NCBI GenBank assembly: GCA_964453435.1
Contig: CAYVQZ010000011.1
Coordinates: forward strand, 9,235-73,234
From: an uncultured bacterium
GTDB lineage: Bacteria; Abyssobacteria; SURF-5
Reading direction: 5' to 3'
DNA length: 64,000 nucleotides
A program made the position numbers and the translations under genes. This document shows, one piece after another, positions 8,908 through 35,262 of the stretch; position 1 is the stretch's first letter; each line of letters starts with the position of its first letter. The notes beneath the pieces were generated by a model. It searched no databases. It had not been told where the DNA came from and saw only the letters and a list, made by a program, of their open reading frames with translations.

Positions 8908-11001
8908 ATGATTGAGAGAATTGAATTACAGTTAGGGCGAAACAAGCTCATAATGGAAACCGGTCACATGGCCAAACAGGCCGACGGAGCGGCGTGTGTC
9001 TTCTATGGCGATACGGGAGTGCTGGTGACCGTCGTGGCGTCGTCGGATGTCCGCGAGGGGATCGACTTCCTCCCGCTCACCGTCGATTATCGGGAGAAAA
9101 CCTACGCCGCCGGAAAAATTCCGGGAGGCTTCTTCAAGCGAGAGGGGAGACCGTCCGAAAAGGAGACGCTGACATCGAGGCTCATCGACCGGCCGTTGCG
9201 TCCCCTGTTTCCCGACGGACACATCAATGAGACACAAATAATGGCCACGGTCATATCGCACGACCAGGAAAACGACCCGGACGTTTTGTCAATCGTGGGG
9301 GCGTCGGCGGCGCTTGCGCTCTCCCGAATTCCCTTCACGAACTTTGTGGGCGCGGTGCGAGTCGGAAGGCTCAACGACGAATTCGTGGTGAATCCCACCT
9401 ACAAGGACTTGGAGGAGAGCGATATCGATCTCGTGGTTGCCGGGACAAAGAGAGCGATTACCATGGTTGAGGGCGGCGGCAGGGAAATCGACGAGGAGAC
9501 GATGATCGCTGCTCTTGAATTCGGCCACCAGATGCTGAAGGACACCATCTCGGCCCAAGAGGAGTTGGTGGCTCGCTGCGGCAAATTTAAGCTGCCCGCC
9601 CCCACAGTCAGCCTTGACGCCGACATCGTGTCGAAGGTTGAATCGTTCGCGAGCGCGAAATTGAGGGAGGTTCTTGTCATTGCGGATAAACTGAAGCGTC
9701 AGGAGACGACGCACTCCGTGTTCGAGGAAACCCTGCAGCAATTTCCCGATGCGGCCGACCCGGAACTCGCGCAAATCAAGGCCGCTTTCAGAAATCTCGA
9801 AAAGAAACTGCTCCGCAACATGATATTGAAAGAGCAGTTGCGGGTTGACGGCAGAGGACCGAAAGCCATACGGCCCATAAGCTGCGAGATTGGGCTGTTG
9901 CCCCGCGTCCATGGTTCGTCTCTGTTCACGAGGGGTGAAACGCAGGCTCTTGTCGCCACAACGCTCGGGACATCGACCGATGAGCAGATTATGGACTCGC
10001 TGTTCGGCGAATACAAAAAGACATTCATGCTTCACTACAATTTCCCGCCGTTCAGCGTGGGCGAGGTCAAGCCGATCCGAGGTCCCGGCCGCCGGGAAAT
10101 CGGGCACGGCGCTCTTGCCGAGCGTTCTCTCGACAGCATGATGCCCTCGTTCGAGGAGTTTCCTTACACGTTGCGGGTCGTTTCCGACATCCTCGAATCG
10201 AACGGGTCATCTTCCATGGCCACGGTCTGCGGCGCCACCCTGTCACTCATGGACGCAGGAGTTCCCATCAAGGAGCCCATCGCCGGTATCGCAATGGGAC
10301 TCGTTCAAGAAGGCGAACAGACAGTTATCCTGAGCGATATTTTGGGGATCGAGGACCATCTCGGCGACATGGACTTCAAAGTCGCCGGCAGCAAGAACGG
10401 CATCACCGGTTTCCAGCTCGACACAAAGACCGATGGACTGAACCTGCATGTTCTCGCTCAAGCTCTTGAGCAGGCGCGAGAGGGACGCCTCTTCATCCTG
10501 GAGAAGATGCTGGAAGCTATCGCGCGGCCGCGCGCGGAAATATCCAAACACGCTCCGAGAATCATTCACATGCGGATCGATCCCGAAAAGATACGGGATG
10601 TCATCGGTCCGGGCGGCCGCATTATTCGAGGCATTGTCAGCGACACCGGCGCCGAAATTAACGTTGAGGACGACGGCAGAGTGCTTATCGCTGCGGTCAA
10701 CCCGGAGGCCGGAGAAAAAGCATACAATATGATTCGGTCCCTGGTCGAAGAAGTCGAAGTGGGCAAAATCTATACCGGCAAGGTGAAACGAGTCCTGAAG
10801 TTCGGCGCCTTCGTGGAAATATTGCCCGGCAAGGAAGGGCTTGTTCACATATCCGAATTGAGCGACCACCGCGTGCGCCGGGTGGAAGATGTTCTCAACG
10901 AGGGTGACACGGTAACGGTGAAGTGCATCGAGATCGACCGGCAAAACCGTATCAACTTGAGCAAGCGGGCCGCAGACAAAGAGCTGGGCGTGGGAGCTTG
11001 A
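8908..11001 (+). CDS. pnp: Polynucleotide phosphorylase (polyribonucleotide nucleotidyltransferase)
   Basis: 697 aa with two RNase PH domains, a KH domain and a C-terminal S1 domain (GKVKRVLKFGAFVEILPGKEGLVHISEL). Follows rpsO, the canonical rpsO-pnp arrangement. Confidence 0.95.
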   Translation: MIERIELQLGRNKLIMETGHMAKQADGAACVFYGDTGVLVTVVASSDVREGIDFLPLTVDYREKTYAAGKIPGGFFKREGRPSEKETLTSRLIDRPLRPLFPDGHINETQIMATVISHDQENDPDVLSIVGASAALALSRIPFTNFVGAVRVGRLNDEFVVNPTYKDLEESDIDLVVAGTKRAITMVEGGGREIDEETMIAALEFGHQMLKDTISAQEELVARCGKFKLPAPTVSLDADIVSKVESFASAKLREVLVIADKLKRQETTHSVFEETLQQFPDAADPELAQIKAAFRNLEKKLLRNMILKEQLRVDGRGPKAIRPISCEIGLLPRVHGSSLFTRGETQALVATTLGTSTDEQIMDSLFGEYKKTFMLHYNFPPFSVGEVKPIRGPGRREIGHGALAERSLDSMMPSFEEFPYTLRVVSDILESNGSSSMATVCGATLSLMDAGVPIKEPIAGIAMGLVQEGEQTVILSDILGIEDHLGDMDFKVAGSKNGITGFQLDTKTDGLNLHVLAQALEQAREGRLFILEKMLEAIARPRAEISKHAPRIIHMRIDPEKIRDVIGPGGRIIRGIVSDTGAEINVEDDGRVLIAAVNPEAGEKAYNMIRSLVEEVEVGKIYTGKVKRVLKFGAFVEILPGKEGLVHISELSDHRVRRVEDVLNEGDTVTVKCIEIDRQNRINLSKRAADKELGVGA

Positions 11002-22726: not shown

Positions 22727-24415
22727 ATGCGAGCGATAGCGGTGTCCGTATGTTTGTCGTTCATTCTGTTATCACCTTCCTTCGCCCATCCATTGGCCCA
22801 AGAGTATCACATGTTGGACACCGAGGAAGCTTTTACGATCGGTCAGGGAAATTTCCGAACCGATGTCGAGTTTGGAGTTACCAAGCAGCCCGACGCGTCG
22901 GAGCTTTATAACATTCCCCGCTTCCGTCTCATCTACGGATTAAGCGAGTGGGCCGATATCGAATTCGAGTACGATTACCTCATCCTCAGGGACGGCGATT
23001 TCGTCGACTTCAGCAGCGGAGTTCGCAAGGAAAGCTACGATGAGGAGGGAACAGGCGACCTCAGGATAAAAGTCAAAGTCGTGCCCTGCGAATTTGGTAT
23101 CCACCGTCTCGGGATTCAAGGCATAGCAAAGCTGCCGATGGCGGAACAAGACAAGGGCTTGGGGACGAATGAAACAGATTTCACATGGCAAATTCTGTTT
23201 TCCAGCGATTGGGGGCTTCTAAAAACCCATCTCAACGCCGGATTTGCCGTGATAGGCGACCCCTCTCGAAACGGGAATCAAAACGATTCACTTGTCTGGG
23301 GTGTCGGCGGCGAGTACGCGTTGACCGATTCGTTAACGCTCATGGCGGAAATAGAAGGTTCCACGGATGCCGAGCAGAGCACCGTTGGGTCCACCGAGAG
23401 CGTTGCCGAGAGTTCGGAGGGAGACGCGCGTGCGCGGGTACGGCTCGCGTTGACCGGACCTATTGGCGCTTGGAGATGGGGCGCAAGTGGTTTTAAAGGG
23501 GTAAACGGTCATACCGAAGACTGGGGCGTTCAGGTCGGCATGAGCAAAACGTGGGGACTCGGCGGGCCGACCGACCAGGCGACTCCGCCCGCAAGGGAAA
23601 AAGGCAAAGCGGCGGTTAAGTCATATTATAATCCTCTCAAGACAGAGGAAGCATACACAATCGGTGAGCGAAACTTCCGTTCCGAACTCGGGTTCGGATA
23701 CGTCAACCAGCCGGATGATTCCGATTTATACATCATGCCGGATGTGGTGTTGGGATGGGGCATCGGACCATGGGCGGATTTGGAAGTCGGCGTACAGTAT
23801 CTTTTTGTTGAGGACACCGCCACGTTTGACGCTGACGGGTCTGTTTTGAACGACGACATCGACAAGGACGGAATCGGCGATGTGCGGGTGAAAGTCAAGC
23901 TCTCTCCCTTTGGCTGCAGATACGGAAGACTGGGCCTTCACCTTGTTACAAAGGTTCCGAGCGCGGATGATGACCATGCCCTCGGTACGGACGAAACCGA
24001 TTTTATAGCAAAAGGACTGTTCTCCACCGATTGGCATCAGGTTTTTGGAAACTCGCTCCTCGGGCGGCTGAAAACGCACGTGAATGCCGGCGTCGCGGTT
24101 CAGTCCGACCGCCGGCAGGTTGGCGCCCAGCAAGATTATCTGGTGTGGGGAGTAGCCGGAGAGTACGGTGTAACGCGCGTGCTTACTCTATGGGCGGAAG
24201 TTGAAGGGGCGACCAACGGAAGGAACACCAGAAATATTTCCGAGGGCGATTTCGGAAATGCACATGCCGAAGCGCGTCTCGGACTCACGGGGCCCATGCC
24301 TCACATCGGCTTCCTGCACGATTGGAAATGGGGCGCCTCCGCGTCCGTGGGGTTGAATAACCATTCGCGCGATTGGACCGCCAACCTGGGATTCAGTCAT
24401 ACGTGGGGAGAATAA
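22727..24415 (+). CDS. Secreted, likely outer-membrane beta-barrel protein with internal tandem duplication (transporter-like, MetA/phenol-degradation-pathway-like family suspected)
   Basis: 562 aa. Signal peptide MRAIAVSVCLSFILLSPSFA. Two homologous ~280-aa halves: EEAFTIGQGNFRTDVEF...DLRIKVKV...LGTNETDF...LKTHLNAGFAV...LVWGVGGEYALT...LMAEIEGST versus EEAYTIGERNFRSELGF...DVRVKVKL...LGTDETDF...LKTHVNAGVAV...LVWGVAGEYGVT...LWAEVEGAT. Alternating hydrophobic pattern and aromatic C-terminus (SHTWGE). Confidence 0.5.
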   Translation: MRAIAVSVCLSFILLSPSFAHPLAQEYHMLDTEEAFTIGQGNFRTDVEFGVTKQPDASELYNIPRFRLIYGLSEWADIEFEYDYLILRDGDFVDFSSGVRKESYDEEGTGDLRIKVKVVPCEFGIHRLGIQGIAKLPMAEQDKGLGTNETDFTWQILFSSDWGLLKTHLNAGFAVIGDPSRNGNQNDSLVWGVGGEYALTDSLTLMAEIEGSTDAEQSTVGSTESVAESSEGDARARVRLALTGPIGAWRWGASGFKGVNGHTEDWGVQVGMSKTWGLGGPTDQATPPAREKGKAAVKSYYNPLKTEEAYTIGERNFRSELGFGYVNQPDDSDLYIMPDVVLGWGIGPWADLEVGVQYLFVEDTATFDADGSVLNDDIDKDGIGDVRVKVKLSPFGCRYGRLGLHLVTKVPSADDDHALGTDETDFIAKGLFSTDWHQVFGNSLLGRLKTHVNAGVAVQSDRRQVGAQQDYLVWGVAGEYGVTRVLTLWAEVEGATNGRNTRNISEGDFGNAHAEARLGLTGPMPHIGFLHDWKWGASASVGLNNHSRDWTANLGFSHTWGE

Positions 24416-24695: not shown

Positions 24696-25592
24696 ATGAA
24701 ACGCCTGATTCTGGGGGGGGTGGCGGCGGCGCTGATATTCATTTTTACGAGGTTGTCACCCGCAGCCGCCGGCCGCATCGGGATTATAATAGGCGACATA
24801 GCGAGGATGGTGGATAAGCGCCACCGTGTCGTTGCGCGCAAGAATCTCAGAATGGCCTTTGGCGGGCAGAAGTCCGAGGCCGAGATAAACCAGATAATCA
24901 AAGAAGTCTTCCGAAATATCGGTCAGACCGCGACGGAATTTTTTCAAATCCCCGCTCTAACATACGAGAAAGCGCGCGCGATCATCACTCCGGAGTTTCG
25001 CGAGCGATTAGATGACTGCCTCAGAGCCGGGAAGGGGATCGTGCTCGTTGCGTCACATTTCGGCAACTGGGAACTCATGGCGGCTGCGGGCGCAGTGGCG
25101 GGATACAAGATATCGGCGGTAGTGCGGCCGCTCGATGACCCGGTTCTGGAGGAGATCGTGCAGGAGACCAGAGAATCTTCCGGGTTACGCATTATTCCGC
25201 GTCGCATCTCGGCTCTGGCAGCCGTCCGGCGGCTGAAACAAAACGAGATCGTCGGCATCCTTGCCGACCAGAACACGCGGAAACAGAATGTATTCGTCGA
25301 TTTCTTTGGTATAAAGACCGCCACCACGCCGGGACCCGCGTTGCTTGCTCTGAGAACCGGCGCAATTCTGTTGCCTGTTTTTATGATGCGAGAGGGACCC
25401 GGCAAACACAGATTGATTGTCGAAAAACCGATCGCGGTCGTTCGCAGCGGCGACGAGGAATCCGATGTCGTTGCAACGACCCAAAAATGTGCTGATATTC
25501 TGGAAGAGTATGTGCGGAGGTTCCCGTCCCAATGGTTGTGGGTCCACCGGCGGTGGCGCACCAGGCCCCCCGGCGAGGAGCCCACGTACTGA
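24696..25592 (+). CDS. Lipid A biosynthesis late (lauroyl/myristoyl) acyltransferase, LpxL/HtrB family
   Basis: 298 aa. N-terminal transmembrane anchor. HFGNWE matches the HX4D/E catalytic motif of lysophospholipid/lipid A acyltransferases. Confidence 0.7.
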   Translation: MKRLILGGVAAALIFIFTRLSPAAAGRIGIIIGDIARMVDKRHRVVARKNLRMAFGGQKSEAEINQIIKEVFRNIGQTATEFFQIPALTYEKARAIITPEFRERLDDCLRAGKGIVLVASHFGNWELMAAAGAVAGYKISAVVRPLDDPVLEEIVQETRESSGLRIIPRRISALAAVRRLKQNEIVGILADQNTRKQNVFVDFFGIKTATTPGPALLALRTGAILLPVFMMREGPGKHRLIVEKPIAVVRSGDEESDVVATTQKCADILEEYVRRFPSQWLWVHRRWRTRPPGEEPTY

Positions 25593-25613
25593 GCGAATCG
25601 CAGAGGAAAATCA

Positions 25614-26570
25614 ATGAGAGAGGGCAAGGACTTCAAGCCGGCTGATCTCAATCGAGTTCGTACGCACAGCATACATGGCAGAAAAACGAAGGTATCCGTG
25701 CGTCAATTTGCCTCGGCGCCTCCGCCTCATGCGGGATTTGCGGAATTTATCGGGTCACTTCCCGACGTGTTGGCGGCCTCGAACCTGAAACGGGTCATCC
25801 GCGATATTGTCTCCGCAAAGAAAAAAGGCAGGCCGATAGTTGCCGCGCTCGGAGGCCATGTGGTGAAATGCGGGCTTGGCCCGGTGCTCGTCGATTTGAT
25901 GGAGAGAGGCTTCATCACGGCGGTGGCGATGCATGGCGCCACTGCGATACATGATTACGAAATCTCGCTCGTGGGACGAACCTCCGAAGATGTCGCAACC
26001 GTTTTGAAAGATGGCTCATTCGGGATGGCGCGCGAAACTCCGGCAGCGTTCAAACGCGCTGCCGAGGAAGCCGCACACAGAGAGCTCGGACTCGGGAAGT
26101 CCCTCGGAAAGTTGATCCTCTCCGAAGAAACCCCTTGCCGTGAGCACAGTGTTTTGGCCGCGGCAGCCAGGCTCGGGCTGCCCGCCGCCGTGCTGCTGGC
26201 TCTCGGGACCGATACCATCTGTATGCATCCCGACTTCTGTCCCGATACGCTGGCACGCGCCAGTCATCTCGATTTCCGCATCCTCGTGTCCGTTGTGTCC
26301 CGGTTGGAGGGCGGCGTCTGGATGAATATCGGGTCTGCCGTTGTTTTACCCGAAGTCTTCCTCAAGGCACTCAGCCTCGCACGCAATCTTGGCTCAAAAG
26401 TCGAGAAATTCACAGCAGTCAATTTAGACATGCGCCAGCACTATCGCCCGAACACGAACGTCGTTGGTCGGTCTACCAGGCAAGGGTATTCCATTACCGG
26501 CCATCACGAGATCATGCTTCCGCTTTTGCGCATGGGGATCATTTCGGCGGCCGAGAGGAAAACCAAATGA
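25614..26570 (+). CDS. Deoxyhypusine synthase-like (DHS fold) protein, divergent paralog
   Basis: 318 aa. The segment KKKGRPIVAALGGHVVKCGLGPVLVDLMERGFITAVAMHGATAIHDYE aligns to the DHS NAD-binding core, cf. CTIIVTLSGAMTIAKMGKVLCEMIDEGMAHIIVSTGALMAHG in the second paralog at 33820-34890. Only 22 bp downstream of the acyltransferase, and it overlaps hldE by 4 nt. Confidence 0.5.
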   Translation: MREGKDFKPADLNRVRTHSIHGRKTKVSVRQFASAPPPHAGFAEFIGSLPDVLAASNLKRVIRDIVSAKKKGRPIVAALGGHVVKCGLGPVLVDLMERGFITAVAMHGATAIHDYEISLVGRTSEDVATVLKDGSFGMARETPAAFKRAAEEAAHRELGLGKSLGKLILSEETPCREHSVLAAAARLGLPAAVLLALGTDTICMHPDFCPDTLARASHLDFRILVSVVSRLEGGVWMNIGSAVVLPEVFLKALSLARNLGSKVEKFTAVNLDMRQHYRPNTNVVGRSTRQGYSITGHHEIMLPLLRMGIISAAERKTK

Positions 26571-28069
26571 AAGCACAACTTCTGACGCTGCTCGAGTCGA
26601 TTCGCGCTCCGAATGTCCTGGTTGTCGGAGACATGATGCTCGATGTCTACGTATGGGGCCATGTCGACCGAATTTCGCCCGAAGCTCCGATCCAGGTGCT
26701 GAAGGTGGAATCGGAAGAACCGCGACCCGGCGGGGCAGGGAATGTAGCAAATAATCTCGTTGCATTGGGAGCACATGTCTCATGCTGTGCGGTTGTCGGC
26801 GATGACCACAATGGCCGCTCGCTGTGTCGGATGCTCGAGAAAATGGGAATCGACTCCTCCGGCGTATTGCGCGACAAGGCCAGGCCGACCACGGTGAAAA
26901 CGAGAATGATCGCCCACGGCCAACAGCTGCTCCGGGTCGACCGCGAAGATGACTGCCCGCTCGATAAAGGTCTCGGGGAAAAAATGATTCAACACATCGA
27001 GGACCGCCTTCCGTGGTGCGATGTGGCGCTGCTTTCTGATTACGCAAAAGGGACGATTCCCGACCGCTTGCTCACGGAGATTCTCGCGCGTTGCAAGAAG
27101 GGGAAAAAACCTGTCTTGATCGACCCATCACGGCATCGTAATTACCGTCTTTATAACGGGTGCACCGTATTGAAACCAAACAGAGCCGAAGCGGAGTCGG
27201 CCGCCGGCGTCAAGATAGAGAACGAGAAGTCACTGAAAGCGGCGGCTGCAAAAATCATGAACACGAGCAAGCCCTCCTATCTCGTGATAACCCGAGGCAG
27301 CGAGGGGATGACCATCTTCGACGGTTCAAACGCGCCTCAGCACATAGCCGGTTTAAGCCGCACTGTTTTCGACATAACCGGCGCCGGCGACACCGTTCTC
27401 TCCCTGCTCGGGTTTGTTCTCGCCGGCGGAGGAACAATGCGCGAAGCGGCCGAGATCGCCAATGTGGCAGCCGGGATATCCGTTGGCAAGGTCGGCGCCG
27501 TCCCGGTGTCGAAAACCGAGATTATCGGGGATTTGTTGAGCGTGCAGCACATGGCGTCGCACAAGCTGAAGTCGTTCGATGAGATCGAGTCCGTCTGCAA
27601 GGAGCATCGCCGGCAAAAAGAGAAAATTGTCTTTGCCAACGGATGTTTTGACTTGCTCCATGCCGGCCATATCAAGTTGTTCCAGTTTGCGAAAAACATG
27701 GGCGAGGTTCTCGTTGTCGGTTTGAACTCGGACGAATCGGTCAGAAAACTGAAGGGGCCCGGAAGACCTGTCCTGGGACAGAATGAACGCTCTTTTCTGC
27801 TCTCCGCCCTCGAACACGTTGACTACGTTGTGGTATTCGAAGAAAGGACACCTCTCAAACTGATTAGGAAAATAAGGCCCGATGTCCTCGTGAAGGGAGC
27901 GGACTACACGAAAGACACCGTGGTAGGGCGGGAATTCGTCGAGTCATACGGCGGACGAGTCGAACTTGCGCCTCTTGTTGACGGCGTGTCCAGTTCGGAT
28001 ATCATGTCGCGGATCGCCGGTCATGGCAAGGATACCCGAAAGCAGGGAATTGGGAAAAAATATGAATGA
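26567..28069 (+). CDS. hldE: Bifunctional D-glycero-beta-D-manno-heptose-7-phosphate kinase / D-glycero-beta-D-manno-heptose-1-phosphate adenylyltransferase
   Basis: 500 aa. N-terminal pfkB carbohydrate kinase domain. C-terminal cytidylyltransferase domain (VFANGCFDLLHAGHIKLFQFAK). Confidence 0.9.
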   Translation: MKAQLLTLLESIRAPNVLVVGDMMLDVYVWGHVDRISPEAPIQVLKVESEEPRPGGAGNVANNLVALGAHVSCCAVVGDDHNGRSLCRMLEKMGIDSSGVLRDKARPTTVKTRMIAHGQQLLRVDREDDCPLDKGLGEKMIQHIEDRLPWCDVALLSDYAKGTIPDRLLTEILARCKKGKKPVLIDPSRHRNYRLYNGCTVLKPNRAEAESAAGVKIENEKSLKAAAAKIMNTSKPSYLVITRGSEGMTIFDGSNAPQHIAGLSRTVFDITGAGDTVLSLLGFVLAGGGTMREAAEIANVAAGISVGKVGAVPVSKTEIIGDLLSVQHMASHKLKSFDEIESVCKEHRRQKEKIVFANGCFDLLHAGHIKLFQFAKNMGEVLVVGLNSDESVRKLKGPGRPVLGQNERSFLLSALEHVDYVVVFEERTPLKLIRKIRPDVLVKGADYTKDTVVGREFVESYGGRVELAPLVDGVSSSDIMSRIAGHGKDTRKQGIGKKYE

Positions 28070-28655
28070 TGTGGCGGTGTTTCTCGATCGTGACGGAACG
28101 CTTAACGAGGAACGAGGCTATCTCAATCATCCTGACAATCTGTATCTTATTGACGGCGCGGCGGAAGCCGTTGCCCTGCTGAATCGCTATGGCCTCAGAG
28201 CAATTGTGGCGACCAATCAGTCCGGGGTCGCTCGAGGATATTTCCCGGAAGCGTTACTTTCGCGGCTCCATGAAAAACTGCAGGGGCTTCTGGAGGAGAG
28301 GGGTGCGAAGTTGGACGCGGTCTACTATTGCCCCCACCATCCCGAGGTTGGCGAGCCGCCATACCGGCAGACGTGCGAGTGCAGAAAACCAGCGGTCGGA
28401 ATGATTCGCAGGGCTGAACGGGAGTTCTCGGTCGACGCCTCCCGGTCATACGTGGTCGGCGATAAACTCAGCGACATCGAATTCGGCAAGGGCGCAGGAT
28501 GCAAGTCCGTCCTTGTCCTGACCGGCTACGGGAAAGGCGAGTGGGAATTCAACCGGCGCCAGTTGAACTGCGCGCCGGACCATGTTGCCGCCGATATTCT
28601 GGACGCTTCAAAGTGGATTGTTGGCGACGTGGAAGCACAGAAACGACGGAAATGA
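28062..28655 (+). CDS. gmhB: D-glycero-D-manno-heptose 1,7-bisphosphate phosphatase (HAD family)
   Basis: 197 aa from ATG 28062. HAD motif FLDRDGTLN and Zn-binding CxH...CxC (YYCPHHPEVGE...CECRKP). Overlaps the hldE stop. Confidence 0.85.
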   Translation: MNDVAVFLDRDGTLNEERGYLNHPDNLYLIDGAAEAVALLNRYGLRAIVATNQSGVARGYFPEALLSRLHEKLQGLLEERGAKLDAVYYCPHHPEVGEPPYRQTCECRKPAVGMIRRAEREFSVDASRSYVVGDKLSDIEFGKGAGCKSVLVLTGYGKGEWEFNRRQLNCAPDHVAADILDASKWIVGDVEAQKRRK

Positions 28656-30151
28656 AAGTATTGTTCATTTATCCGAATCTCGACGCCCAGATAGGCTTCA
28701 ATTACGGTATCGCCTTTCTTTCCGCCTGTCTCAAGCGACACGGGCACGCAACGGCTCTCCTCAATATCAACGACCAGCTTGGGTTTCCGATGGACCTTGC
28801 AAGGGTCGCCGACGAGGTGACCTCGTTTGCGCCCGATGTGATCGCGTTCTCGGTGGTAACAAATCAGTACCGTTTCGCCCGCATGATCGCCCGCGACATC
28901 AAGCGCTACTGTTCCGCTCCCATCGTCTGCGGCGGCATCCATCCCACGATGGACCCCGAGGGAGTTCTTCGGGAAGAGTGTTTCGATTATGTTTGTGTGG
29001 GCGAAGGCGAGGAAGCCATTGTCGAGCTTGCAGACACGCTCGCCGCCAGGAAACCGGTTGCCGAAATCGAGAACATCTGGTGCAAGACGAACGGCGCGAT
29101 TGTCCGCAACAGGGTGCGGCCGTTTGTCTCGCTCGAGTCATTGCCTCCGAAGGACTACGAAATCTTTGATTTCCAGAAAATGGTCGATGCGAAGGACGGC
29201 TGGGTCGGCGTCATGAGTTCGCGCGGATGCCCGTTCAGTTGTACCTATTGTTTCAACCATAAGCTGCGCGAGCTGTACCAACACGACCTCGAATGCCCGG
29301 CGGCGAAGCTGAACTACATCCGCCGCCACCCGGTCGATACCGTCATCGGGGAGATCGAATGGCTGCTGGCAACTTACAAGAACATCAAAACTATTATCTT
29401 TGACGATGACCTCTTCACACTTGACAAAAAGTACCTCGCAGAGTTTTGCAGAAAATATCAGGCTCGAGTGAGCCTGCCATTCGTTTGCAACGCCCATGTC
29501 AAGGTCTTCGATGAGGAGGTTGCTCGAAGCCTGAAAGACGCGGGGTGCAATATGGTGAAATTCGGACTGGAAAGCGGAAGCGAGCGAATCCGGAAAGAGA
29601 TATTGAATCGCCGCATGTCAAACGAGGAAATAGCTCGGGCATTCTCCGTCGCGGACGATTTCGCATTTCACACCTCGGCGTTTGTTATGATAGGATTCCC
29701 GCATGAATCGATCAACGACGTCCGGGACACCATCGAGCTGCTCGCCCGGATCAAGCCCGGCCGGTTCCGCTGGTCCATTTTTTTTCCCTACGTCAACACG
29801 CGAGCATACGAAATAGCGCGAGACGGCGGTTTCATCGACTTTCGCAAACTGGAGTCGTTGACAAATTTCACCGACGAATCGGCGCTCGACTTCGGCCCCG
29901 AGCACAATTCTTTTCTGCGACGGCTGAAAGTCACGTTTCCATGGCATGTTAACGCGCGCGCCGGCTTCTCCGGCTCTCATCTCTATCAAAGCCTTATCGA
30001 ACAAACCGATAAGATCGAAATGGAGAGGTGGCCGGAGGCCGAGGAATACATCATCAAGATTGACGGCGAGATTTCGAGGGCGCTCACTCTGGCGGGCGAG
30101 CCCCATTACGCCTACCGGTACAACCTGTTTACGGCGGTGAGAAGCTATTAG
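28652..30151 (+). CDS. B12-binding domain-containing radical SAM protein
   Basis: 499 aa from ATG 28652. N-terminal cobalamin-binding Rossmann-like domain (MKVLFIYPNLD...). Radical SAM cluster motif CPFSCTYC (CX3CX2C). Overlaps the gmhB stop. Confidence 0.7.
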   Translation: MKVLFIYPNLDAQIGFNYGIAFLSACLKRHGHATALLNINDQLGFPMDLARVADEVTSFAPDVIAFSVVTNQYRFARMIARDIKRYCSAPIVCGGIHPTMDPEGVLREECFDYVCVGEGEEAIVELADTLAARKPVAEIENIWCKTNGAIVRNRVRPFVSLESLPPKDYEIFDFQKMVDAKDGWVGVMSSRGCPFSCTYCFNHKLRELYQHDLECPAAKLNYIRRHPVDTVIGEIEWLLATYKNIKTIIFDDDLFTLDKKYLAEFCRKYQARVSLPFVCNAHVKVFDEEVARSLKDAGCNMVKFGLESGSERIRKEILNRRMSNEEIARAFSVADDFAFHTSAFVMIGFPHESINDVRDTIELLARIKPGRFRWSIFFPYVNTRAYEIARDGGFIDFRKLESLTNFTDESALDFGPEHNSFLRRLKVTFPWHVNARAGFSGSHLYQSLIEQTDKIEMERWPEAEEYIIKIDGEISRALTLAGEPHYAYRYNLFTAVRSY

Positions 30152-30212
30152 CGCCAGTAGCAATTTCTCCAACATCCTTGTTCGGCTTCCCAACTGGGTT
30201 GGCGACGTCGTC

Positions 30213-31214
30213 ATGGCGACTCCCACACTGCGCTGCCTCCGGCTCAATTTCCCTCATGCGCGGATCGACCTCACACTTGTTCCATATGTACGCGAGATTG
30301 TGGAAGGTGCCCCATGGTTCGACGCCATCGTCGAATATGAGGCCGGTTCGGGCTTCGGCGGACTCGCAAAATCAGCCGGCTACCTTCGCAGGCTGAGACG
30401 GAACCGGTATGACCTTGCCATTGTTCTTCCCAACTCCTTCAGTTCGGCGCTTCTCGCGTTCCTGTCCGGCGCGAAACGGCGAGTCGGATATGACCGGCAG
30501 GGACGCGGTTTCCTGCTTACCGACGCGGCGCCCGCGCCCGTCGAGAACGGACGCTTTGTCCCCCAGCCGATGGTCGAGTACTACCTCAACCTGTGCGACG
30601 GGCTCGTGGAATCGCTGGGCTCACGAAAAACGGAACTCTTCGTTGACTCCCGCTCTGAGCAAAGGGCGGACGAGTTGTTCGACAGGTACGGGATTGGACG
30701 GTCAAAGCCGGTGGTCGCCATAAACCCGGGAGCGGCCTACGGCTCGTCCAAGCTGTGGATTCCCGACCGGTTCGCTGCGGTCGCAGACCATTTCGCCGGA
30801 GACGGACGGTGCGACGTCGTGCTGCTGGGCGCGCCGGCTGAAGCCCCTATTGCCCGCGAGATTGTCGGCGCTGCTCGCACGGATATCGCGAACCTGGCAG
30901 AGGAACATGTCGGACTCGGCCTCCTGAAATCCATTATCAAGCGGTGCGACCTCCTGATCACCGTCGATTCCGGACCCCGCCATTTCGCTGTTGCGTTCAA
31001 TAAACCCGTCGTGGTCTTGATGGGACCGACGGACCCCCGCTACACCAACTGCAACCTTGACAAGACCACCGTGGTCAGAGTTGAAAACCTCGAATGCGCT
31101 CCGTGCCACATTAAGCAATGCCCCACCCATCATGAATGCATGACGCGCATCACCGCCGATATGGTCATTCAAGCCGCCACCGAATTGCTGCAAAGACACG
31201 TCAAGGCGGATTGA
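30213..31214 (+). CDS. Lipopolysaccharide heptosyltransferase, glycosyltransferase family 9 (WaaC/WaaF-like)
   Basis: 333 aa from the first ATG. The conserved GT9 N-terminus (ILVRLPNWVGDVVMATPTLRCL, cf. ILIIRLSSIGDVVLTTP) is encoded upstream of that ATG, in frame back to a stop at 30138-30140. The true start is probably a non-canonical codon near 30147-30174. Confidence 0.8.
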   Translation: MATPTLRCLRLNFPHARIDLTLVPYVREIVEGAPWFDAIVEYEAGSGFGGLAKSAGYLRRLRRNRYDLAIVLPNSFSSALLAFLSGAKRRVGYDRQGRGFLLTDAAPAPVENGRFVPQPMVEYYLNLCDGLVESLGSRKTELFVDSRSEQRADELFDRYGIGRSKPVVAINPGAAYGSSKLWIPDRFAAVADHFAGDGRCDVVLLGAPAEAPIAREIVGAARTDIANLAEEHVGLGLLKSIIKRCDLLITVDSGPRHFAVAFNKPVVVLMGPTDPRYTNCNLDKTTVVRVENLECAPCHIKQCPTHHECMTRITADMVIQAATELLQRHVKAD

Positions 31215-33728: not shown

Positions 33729-33819
33729 GATACCCCGGTTGCGCATCTGTCCGAAATCCGATTTCGCTGAGATGTGTTCGCCGCGTTCGCCGAAACTGTT
33801 CGTTCGCCACCGGGCTCAT

Positions 33820-34890
33820 TCAGCCCTCTCTCTTTTGCCGCGTTTCGAGTATGGCGCGGACAAGCAGCGGCCACACGATTGTGGCGTCTGTGCGCACCTC
33901 GGCAAAACGGCCGCCCTCTTCCCTCGGCAAAAACTTCCCCCACGACACACCCTCGCTGTACGGACATCCGCTCAGCCCGCCCCAGTACGCGGGTTCCGGA
34001 CAGATTCGCACACCATACCGGATGCGGGGAATGGGCAGGTCCAGCCCCAGCCGCATATTAATTATGTCGATAAAGGGGCCCATCTGCTGACCCCAGTTTC
34101 TCGGAACTCCACCCCCGATCGTAAATATGCCCAGCCGCTCGGCTCGCACCACTCGTTTGGCGAAATCGTACAAATCGAGGAACGCATTGTACGGGGGCAC
34201 ATCGGAAAAGAACGCGTCGACATCCTTTTCCTTATCCGTTTTGTACTTGGCAGCCAGGAAATGCGTCGCTACATCGAGACCAAGCTCCGAATCGGTAAAC
34301 GCGGGGACATATATCGGGACCCCTTTCCGGTATGCGCATCCGAGAACACTCGGCATCAGGTCGTCCTGGAGCAGGCGCCGCCCGATCTCCGCATTCAACC
34401 TGTGCGAGCAGGCGGGCTCCGACCAGTCGACTTCGCTCAACACTTTTCGTATGAATTTCTCGGCGGCGGTAAGGTTCGCCTCCATCTCGAGCGTGTCGTA
34501 AACCCGGTTGTAGCCCCATTTATACAGCACGGTGTCGGGAGTTTTCGGGTCATACTTATAGTGCACGCATCCTATCGCCTCGGTCAGGCCATGCGCCATC
34601 AACGCGCCCGTGCTGACGATGATGTGCGCCATACCCTCATCTATCATTTCGCAGAGCACTTTGCCCATCTTTGCTATCGTCATGGCGCCCGACAGGGTGA
34701 CAATGATTGTGCAGGCGGGGTCCTCGACCATCTCGCGAAACACGAGATAGGCCTCGCCGAGTTCGCGTGCGCCGAAGGCGGTCTTCGACATCTGCGCAAG
34801 TATGTCCGCGACGTTGTCGGCGGACCGAACATCGATGGGTTCAAGCGGTTCGAGGCCGTCTTTGCGGCCGTCATGCATTTCTCGTTTCAA
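33820..34890 (-). CDS. Deoxyhypusine synthase-like protein
   Basis: 356 aa. Strong DHS-family similarity: CTIIVTLSGAMTIAKMGKVLCEMIDEGMAHIIVSTGALMAHG (NAD-binding core), FTIGGGVPRN, C-terminal EGVSWGKF. The 426-aa + strand ORF 33739-35019 is its shadow. Confidence 0.8.
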   Translation of the reverse strand: MKREMHDGRKDGLEPLEPIDVRSADNVADILAQMSKTAFGARELGEAYLVFREMVEDPACTIIVTLSGAMTIAKMGKVLCEMIDEGMAHIIVSTGALMAHGLTEAIGCVHYKYDPKTPDTVLYKWGYNRVYDTLEMEANLTAAEKFIRKVLSEVDWSEPACSHRLNAEIGRRLLQDDLMPSVLGCAYRKGVPIYVPAFTDSELGLDVATHFLAAKYKTDKEKDVDAFFSDVPPYNAFLDLYDFAKRVVRAERLGIFTIGGGVPRNWGQQMGPFIDIINMRLGLDLPIPRIRYGVRICPEPAYWGGLSGCPYSEGVSWGKFLPREEGGRFAEVRTDATIVWPLLVRAILETRQKREG

Positions 34891-35262
34891 TTGCCAAACC
34901 TCCGTTTACCGTTTTCCTTGCCTTGTATCGTTCGCGTGAGGCTCGCCCGTTCACGGGACGGAGTTTCTCGGCTGACACCTGCTCAGCCTCCAATCGCTGC
35001 CCTGCTATTCTACCCTTAAACCGTCGGTATTTTCCAATAAAAACCGACAGTCTTCCTTTTCACAGAGGGAGGGCGCAACGAACCGCAGCATCTCGCCGTC
35101 ATTAAGCGTCTTTTTTCCCCCGAACAAACGATTGAAAAGAGATAAGCTTTTCCTTTCGGCCGCAGATTCGGCCATCGCCTTCTTCTTTTCAATGAGGGAA
35201 ATACTGCAGTTGATATATCCAATTTGGGTAAATGTCCGTGGAGAATTGCCGAGGGCCTCATG

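Follow-up and report, generated by a model that had tools for sequence, protein, structure and literature searches.

ADP-heptose synthesis is regarded as a closed textbook pathway, in which GmhA, HldE, GmhB, and HldD act. The pathway is a target for antibiotic adjuvants, and ADP-heptose itself is an innate-immune signal. HldD, a short-chain dehydrogenase/reductase (SDR) enzyme, epimerises C6 of ADP-heptose by a transient oxidation and reduction in which the cofactor is recycled. Deoxyhypusine synthase (DHS) and ornithine cyclodeaminase likewise recycle their cofactor. To our knowledge, every characterised enzyme of the DHS-like fold, namely DHS, homospermidine synthase, and the ornithine cyclodeaminases of AgrE and TIGR00300, works with a bound dinucleotide, which is reduced when it accepts a hydride and is oxidised again before the turnover ends. 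This study concerns a gene encoding a 318-amino-acid protein with a DHS-like fold that stands among genes of heptose synthesis. It lies in a 64,000-nucleotide stretch of DNA (the window) from an uncultured bacterium of the Abyssubacteria (contig CAYVQZ010000011.1) and belongs to the NCBIfam family NF052581, “GSU2086 family protein,” named after GSU2086 of Geobacter sulfurreducens. A preliminary description of the window had called the product a truncated, divergent DHS-fold copy in a lipopolysaccharide (LPS) context, coupled to heptose biosynthesis.

The family can be tied to nucleotide-heptose synthesis because three independent kinds of evidence bear on it: gene order, natural fusions, and the phenotype of a Geobacter mutant. 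On this evidence, the window protein very probably acts alongside GmhA, HldE, and GmhB in the nucleotide-heptose branch of the synthesis of the LPS inner core. The gene is preceded by a lipid A acyltransferase gene of the LpxL type, the end of which lies 21 nt before its ATG, and is followed by genes for HldE, GmhB, a radical SAM protein, and heptosyltransferase II (Table 1). Its stop codon overlaps the start of hldE, and gmhB, from its probable start, shares 8 nt with the end of hldE. Base composition and GC content at third codon positions (GC3) are equal across the genes of the operon. Because of this close spacing, the ribosome-binding site, the overlaps, and the uniform composition, the LPS and heptose setting is real and translational coupling of the gene to hldE likely, as the preliminary description had proposed. 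The heptose link also proved much stronger than a single operon would indicate. In metagenome-assembled genomes (MAGs) of the Abyssubacteria type, the operon of the window is kept gene for gene, in the order LpxL-X-HldE-GmhB-rSAM-GT9, where X is the family member and rSAM the radical SAM protein.

Gene neighborhoods were compared in 160 loci, 80 from species-representative genomes and 80 from metagenomes. A heptose-pathway gene was present in 94 of them (51 genome and 43 metagenome loci). The gmhA gene stood directly upstream in 68 loci (38 and 30, respectively), hldE directly downstream in 20 (12 and 8), and lpxK directly upstream in seven genome and five metagenome loci. Loci free of heptose genes still adjoin LptE or O-antigen ligase. 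In Brocadia, the order is LpxK, a small ferredoxin, the family member, and Nth, with KdsD, KdsC, and LptC close by; the ferredoxin gene, which encodes a 56-residue 2x[4Fe-4S] protein (positions 9803–9973 of locus L002, CP091279.1), separates lpxK from the family member in each of the three Brocadia records examined (L001–L003). The recurrent neighbors in Desulfobacterales, a TPR protein, HemC, SelA, and CysS, were set aside as reflecting lineage synteny, not function.

Natural fusions were surveyed among the 150 best cluster representatives of the family, 14 of which are clearly longer than a single domain; 13 of these are heterologous fusions, and P0126 is a tandem duplication. Pfam resolved an HldC adenylyltransferase domain in P0125, P0128, P0140, and P0188, a whole HldE in P0158, an HldA kinase in P0232, a GmhA-type SIS domain in P0152, a GmhB-like HAD phosphatase in P0149, and an ARMT1-type phosphatase together with HldC in P0212. 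Fusions to GmhA (P0235) and HldC (P0263), the kinase-like N-terminus of P0146, and the duplication in P0126 were judged by eye. An adenylyltransferase domain, the maker of ADP-heptose, occurs in 7 of the 13 heterologous fusions, and all canonical enzymes of the pathway but HldD are represented. The family as a non-orthologous GmhA or GmhB was considered and ruled out, since both of these enzymes adjoin or are fused to the family gene in many lineages.

A transposon-sequencing (Tn-seq) study of G. sulfurreducens gives the order gmhB (GSU2084), hldE (GSU2085), GSU2086, and gmhA (GSU2087); there, the log2 fitness values for growth on electrodes are −3.1 for hldE, −3.2 for GSU2086, and −3.7 for gmhA, i.e., the same defect (PMC5585712). 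The window protein agrees with the family in length and conserved motifs and matches it over its full length, and its operon partners are those of GSU2086, which stands between hldE and gmhA. In the literature searched, GSU2086 was found mentioned in a Tn-seq table alone, and no paper was found that links a DHS-like protein to heptose.

The open reading frame (ORF) reported in the preliminary description was confirmed. Its product scores 370.2 bits (E 8.9e-111) against NF052581, the curated cut-off of which is 250 bits, and residues 10–306 align to profile positions 2–299 of 301. A word-indexed search returned at least 7998 homologues. The family comprises 2463 clusters at 50% identity with E ≤ 1e-3, of which 483 have E ≤ 1e-30. 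Named sources of members include Abyssubacteria, Hydrogenedentota, MAGs labeled Poribacteria and Lindowbacteria, and anammox Planctomycetota, and the genome loci add Desulfobacterota, Nitrospirota, Acidobacteriota, Omnitrophota, Zixibacteria, and Binatia. In the libraries searched, no member of NF052581 with a described function was found. Judged by these comparisons, the window protein is a member of an old and widespread family of its own within the DHS-like superfamily.

An AlphaFold model of the protein, built with 44 homologues, has a predicted local distance difference test (pLDDT) score of 81.5 and a predicted template modeling (pTM) score of 0.81. It contains six parallel strands, formed by residues 75–79, 103–107, 191–194, 235–239, 267–271, and 290–294. 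When compared with the PDB using Foldseek, the model matched archaeal and human DHS, the LOR/SDH protein 3c2q, and the C-terminal domains of ArgZ/AgrE, all with a probability of 1.0, with E values from 1.6e-7 to 7e-6, TM scores of ~0.5–0.6, and identities of 11–19%. The best matches were the DHS chain 7cmc_C (E 1.6e-7), 3c2q (E 1.9e-7), and human DHS 6p4v_B (E 7e-7), and TM scores to DHS were 0.54–0.59. Because of this model and its matches to DHS and the cyclodeaminases, the fold assignment of the preliminary description was right. Its term “truncated” does not fit, as all six strands are present and the length is comparable to that of the matched archaeal DHS chains (299–312 residues). The possibility of a truncated or decayed DHS paralog was ruled out on the same grounds, along with the full-length match to NF052581 and the retention of clade-specific residues, described below, in close relatives.

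A genuine DHS-family protein is encoded 7 kb away in the window (33820–34890, minus strand; PF01916, 232 bits), with an intact S-W-G-K motif. A copy 72% identical to it lies on the same Abyssubacteria contig as P0015, a relative of the protein studied here, and the 426-residue ORF on the opposite strand (33739–35019) is probably spurious. The preliminary description had aligned two peptides. One, GGHVVKCGL...HDYE, was located in the first β-α-β unit of the protein (Table 1), and the other, ascribed to a second paralog, at 34588–34692 on the minus strand, within this DHS gene. The register of that alignment was weakly reproduced, in that a profile of 63 family members aligned with a profile of 30 DHS relatives over residues 39–202 in the same register (E 7e-4, probability 26%), but pairwise significance was lacking, with a BLASTP E value of 0.2 between the two window proteins. 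An hhalign alignment of the protein to a single DHS sequence was spurious and was discarded. The first β-α-β unit falls in register with DHS, as does a T-D motif that follows strand 3. Because the residues aligned to the NAD-contact segments of DHS are conserved (G80–V84, 107–109, H113, and D200), retention of an NAD-binding core, as had been suggested, is plausible. The pair formed by the catalytic lysine of DHS and the histidine after its strand 4, which had also been proposed for comparison, was not recovered in the protein. The S-W-G-K motif that carries this lysine (K329 in human numbering) is invariant in the 30 relatives of the window DHS and is absent from the protein and its family. 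K251, which lies in the helix that follows strand 4, is the sole invariant lysine of the family, and the DHS profile alignment stops near residue 202.

The family lies nearer by sequence to the ornithine-cyclodeaminase branch (AgrE, LOR/SDH) than to DHS, because of weak matches to PF21570 and TIGR00300 and a common G..HD.E..G.TS motif. The protein is not a “divergent copy” of the nearby DHS. Pfam yielded a single match, below threshold, of residues 60–122 to the Rossmann-type C-terminal domain of ArgZ-like proteins (PF21570; 22.8 bits, cut-off 27), and some other family members just exceed this cut-off, such as P0140 (29.4 bits) and a Chloroflexota homologue (30.3 bits). A search of the PDB by sequence likewise matched the first β-α-β unit only, the best matches being 3c2q (chain residues 129–186) and AgrE (480–538). 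Residues 80–116 are the only stretch of the protein with sequence similarity to DHS and to the AgrE/LOR-SDH cyclodeaminase domains. When full-length relatives of ornithine cyclodeaminase were sought, proteins gave only fragments of 59–102 residues and plasmids one weak match. The AgrE/ArgZ and LOR/SDH cyclodeaminase domains (PF21570, TIGR00300; 3c2q, 6lrg) are the nearest sequence relatives of the protein, with which they have in common G-x-x-x-I/V-x-x-G-G ... G-N-A-x-A-x-H-D-x-E ... G-T-S. They match its fold (Foldseek E 2e-7 to 6e-6), and their chemistry is a cofactor-recycling hydride transfer. The protein differs from them in being a single 318-residue domain without an N-terminal LOR/SDH or guanidino-modifying domain, in that the rest of its sequence cannot be aligned, and in its context, which is heptose synthesis rather than arginine and ornithine metabolism.

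It is hardly credible that the LPS operon merely happens to house a genuine synthase of deoxyhypusine or homospermidine, or an ornithine cyclodeaminase. Such an identity would account for the common fold (DHS and homospermidine synthase-like proteins, PF01916 and TIGR00321, have the same six strands and a similar size), for the traces of NF001980, NF002630, and TIGR00300 in the sequence, and for the database records that label relatives “deoxyhypusine synthase.” These traces of homospermidine synthase, DHS, and cyclodeaminase models amount to 16–24 bits against cut-offs of 350–450 (24 bits against 410.8 for TIGR00300, 16.3 against 364 for NF002630) and are confined to residues ~58–122. PF01916 gave no match at E ≤ 0.01, identity to DHS is 11–16%, and the lysine motif of the real DHS of the window is absent, as is an N-terminal LOR/SDH domain. 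The fusion partners and neighbors are heptose enzymes, not enzymes of polyamine or arginine metabolism, and no eIF5A or polyamine context is present. The preliminary description was thus sound in setting the protein apart from enzymes of hypusine and homospermidine synthesis, as it scores below all DHS cut-offs.

The likeness to HldD is proposed only at the level of function. The two are unrelated in fold and sequence, and neither Pfam nor NCBIfam gave a match of the protein to SDR or epimerase families. A query with E. coli HldD found nothing in the window. Within ~10 kb in the 160 loci it gave SDR matches of 25–39 bits only, and no bona fide HldD was present. SDR genes near family members, checked in five places, scored 60–109 bits on the HldD model TIGR02197, which has a cut-off of 274.6 bits, and one of them is RmlB. 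Three similar SDR epimerase/dehydratase genes were noted in LPS clusters, 2–8 kb from a family member (L105, 18899–19906; L119, 5362–6417; L149, 10176–11183). They reach no NCBIfam cut-off, with ~145 bits for GalE, ~150 for RmlB, and ~100 for HldD. HldD is the sole canonical enzyme of the pathway that was never seen as a neighbor or fusion partner in the loci and cluster representatives surveyed. The Helicobacter pylori cluster has the order gmhA-hldE-hldD-gmhB (PMC10269868), and in Geobacter-type operons the family gene stands where this cluster has hldD.

Given the fold, the missing HldD partner, and the bias of the fusions toward adenylyltransferase, the simplest fitting reaction is heptose 6-epimerisation by a DHS-fold enzyme. 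We tentatively propose, by analogy, that the protein may be a cofactor-recycling redox epimerase of a heptose intermediate and so a counterpart of HldD, with which it would have in common the pathway, the place in the operon, and a transient oxidation by a bound nicotinamide cofactor. The protein is very probably a cytoplasmic, single-domain enzyme with a six-stranded dinucleotide-binding fold; in the proposed reaction, an NAD(P)-type dinucleotide, tightly held at the C-terminal edge of the sheet, would serve as a recycled hydride acceptor. One carbinol of the heptose intermediate would be oxidised and then re-reduced, and the product would be the L-glycero epimer, a role filled in Proteobacteria by the unrelated SDR enzyme HldD. 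The new substrate that the preliminary description had suggested would, by this analogy, be a heptose intermediate. It could be a heptose phosphate, not ADP-heptose as for HldD; the enzyme may act on heptose 7-phosphate, and one might speculate that a C6 epimerase of this compound would suit biosynthetic and catabolic settings alike. The cofactor may be one other than NAD, because the nearest relatives use a nickel-pincer dinucleotide; for the TIGR00300 cyclodeaminase, this cofactor is reported to be a nickel-pincer adenine dinucleotide (Desguin 2025, cited in PMC13524815).

A wider and still more tentative proposal is that many non-proteobacterial diderm phyla make L-glycero-D-manno-heptose or another heptose epimer by means of an enzyme of the DHS/cyclodeaminase fold, not HldD. 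These phyla may include the Desulfobacterota, Planctomycetota (among them the anammox bacteria), Nitrospirota, Acidobacteriota, Abyssubacteria, and the organisms of Poribacteria-type MAGs. If the epimerase proposal is true, the ADP-heptose pathway has a fifth, so far unrecognised enzyme, and its usual scheme falls short for a large share of bacterial diversity, with the additional enzyme occurring in thousands of sequence clusters, in many phyla, and in natural fusions to the other pathway enzymes, HldD excepted. A sugar or sugar-nucleotide substrate would also be added to a fold known for amine chemistry alone (deoxyhypusine, homospermidine, and ornithine cyclisation). The family itself is already catalogued, and what we rate as new is that a fold and a cofactor logic already known would serve a further pathway and another class of substrate.

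Several observations weigh against the epimerase proposal. Replacement of HldD is not logically required, because bacteria without HldD can use D,D-heptose, and Coxiella is reported to use D,D-heptose alone (PMC13252051). The similarity to NAD-binding relatives is limited to residues ~60–123, and the window protein has L194 and C203, having lost two otherwise conserved histidines. The commonest partner is gmhA, which encodes the first step of the pathway, and in Desulfobacterales gmhA and the family gene form a two-gene unit amid housekeeping genes (TPR, hemC, and selA). On a megaplasmid of Chloroflexota ZRK35 (CP069395.1; locus L089, 8095–11525), a 34%-identical homologue lies between a HAD hydrolase and a PfkB kinase with a SIS_2 isomerase; the cluster also contains a sugar ABC transporter, two Gfo/Idh/MocA oxidoreductases, and DeoC, and no adenylyltransferase. 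Chloroflexota usually have no LPS, and from its gene content the cluster looks catabolic, directed to the utilisation of a sugar, possibly heptose. The pairing with gmhA and the Chloroflexota cluster favor a sugar-phosphate substrate.

These last observations bear on an alternative in which the protein acts beside GmhA at the level of sugar phosphates, not on ADP-heptose, and catalyzes a reaction other than C6 epimerisation, e.g., another stereochemical change in the 7-phosphate of sedoheptulose or heptose, or one that pulls the GmhA equilibrium forward. The direct adjacency of gmhA in 68 of the 160 loci, the stand-alone pair in Desulfobacterales, the GmhA fusions P0152 and P0235, and a Chloroflexota cluster of HAD hydrolase, homologue, PfkB kinase, and SIS protein without a nucleotidyltransferase are all in keeping with it. 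We consider it unlikely, as adenylyltransferase fusions are commoner, both the window and Planctomycetota have the family gene coupled to hldE and lack a gmhA close to it, and the known chemistry of the pathway demands no specific reaction at this level.

In an alignment of 63 diverse members of the family, nine residues are invariant, all of which are present in the window protein: E116, T123, E125, G134, G240, S241, K251, D272, and E299. Near-invariant residues include G80, H82, K85, G87, H113, D114, S124, F136, G137, D220, N238, E247, Y277, R278, R286, and H298. In the model, conserved polar residues lie at the C-terminal ends of all six strands (G80/H82/K85, H113/D114/E116, T199/D200/H205, N238/G240/S241/E247, D272/Y277/R278, and G296/H298/E299, in strand order) and also in a low-confidence loop at residues 121–140 (T123-S124-E125-D126 and G134-F136-G137). 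Such a pattern is to be expected where an active site is nucleotide-dependent and has a mobile lid. It speaks against a protein whose cleft binds ADP-heptose itself, an NAD-like molecule, and which acts as a carrier, flux regulator, hydrolase, or pathway scaffold, since the invariant polar residues and the conserved flexible loop look catalytic and the closest sequence relatives are cofactor-dependent cyclodeaminases. Such a role would agree with the many conserved His, Asp, and Glu residues that could bind a metal, and binding of NAD is itself inferred only. Some members of the DHS-like NAD/FAD-binding superfamily, e.g., sirtuins, take NAD as a substrate rather than a cofactor, and a non-redox role has fold relatives of this kind in its favor. 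On balance, it is very doubtful.

Five positions that are 80–90% conserved in the family differ in the clade of the window protein: 107, 194, 203, 214, and 287. Position 107 is H (N in 84% of the family), 194 is L or M (H in 90%), and 203 is C or S (H in 82%). All close relatives carry the changes at 107, 194, and 203, and because of this the clade is regarded as a stable variant, not a product of decay; the active site may be rearranged in this Abyssubacteria-type clade. In a second subfamily, represented by P0126, P0235, and the homologue on plasmid pDCAR1, G-L-H-Q-Q-T-I-P replaces G-H-H-E-I-M-L-P.

The radical SAM gene of the operon invites another alternative to the epimerase proposal, in which the protein tailors ADP-heptose in some other way, by oxidation or epimerisation elsewhere in the molecule, for the B12-radical SAM enzyme, and a modified heptose enters the LPS core or another glycan. 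Homologous B12-radical SAM genes stand beside the family gene and hldE in three distant settings: the window and Abyssubacteria MAGs; a Planctomycetota MAG (L051, 2644–4308, 399 bits); and plasmid pDCAR1 of Solidesulfovibrio carbinolicus (L088, 19409–20941, 263 bits), where an HldE-like gene, the family homologue, a SIS gene, and three radical SAM genes follow one another within a pseudaminic-acid glycan cluster. Some lineages may make a modified heptose, because of these radical SAM homologues beside hldE and family members, and the radical SAM protein may modify a heptose, e.g., by C-methylation. As an account of the family, however, this tailoring role is quite improbable: a radical SAM neighbor was seen in just three of the 80 genome loci and two of the 80 metagenome loci, in part with low scores, and the family is far more widespread than this partner. 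No characterised NCBIfam model reaches its cut-off on the radical SAM protein of the window.

Table 1. Coordinates of the GSU2086-family gene of the window, its signals, and the surrounding operon.
Feature	Position	Strand	Basis or remark
Lipid A late acyltransferase gene (LpxL/HtrB type), upstream	24696–25592	+	PF03279, 196 bits
Ribosome-binding site AGAGGA	25602–25607	+	6 nt ahead of ATG, 9 nt past stop codon of lpxL-like gene; read from sequence
GSU2086-family coding sequence, 318 aa, DHS/ornithine-cyclodeaminase-like fold	25614–26570	+	ORF; NF052581, 370 bits; model and Foldseek
First β-α-β unit, residues 80–116	25851–25961	+	Motifs G-x-H-x-x-K-x-G and (N/H)-G-A-x-x-I-H-D-x-E
GAGAGGA ahead of hldE start	26553–26559	+	Read from sequence
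ATGA, overlap of family-gene TGA stop and hldE ATG	26567–26570	+	Read from sequence
hldE, bifunctional heptose-7-phosphate kinase and heptose-1-phosphate adenylyltransferase	26567–28069	+	TIGR02198, 360 bits; TIGR02199, 196 bits; both above cut-offs
gmhB, heptose-1,7-bisphosphate 7-phosphatase	28062–28655 (probable start)	+	NF006506, 179 bits against cut-off of 178
B12-binding radical SAM protein	28652–30151	+	PF02310 and PF04055; probable start overlaps gmhB stop as ATGA
GT9 heptosyltransferase (type II)	30213–31214	+	TIGR02195, 173 bits; true start probably upstream

Two further observations concern genes at the edges of the operon. The conserved N-terminal motif of GT9 heptosyltransferases, ILVRLPNWVGDVV, is encoded in frame at 30141–30213 on the plus strand, before the first ATG, GTG, or TTG codon (30213), so that either the true start of this gene is non-canonical or there is a sequence error at this place. 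Upstream, a 562-residue secreted protein with a signal-peptide-like N-terminus is encoded at 22727–24415 on the plus strand. Pfam and NCBIfam scans gave no match for it, its two halves are homologous (44% identity, E 7e-69), and it may be an outer-membrane protein. Its gene is flanked by dnaE on one side and the lpxL-like gene on the other, and in MAG locus L087 this position is likewise filled.

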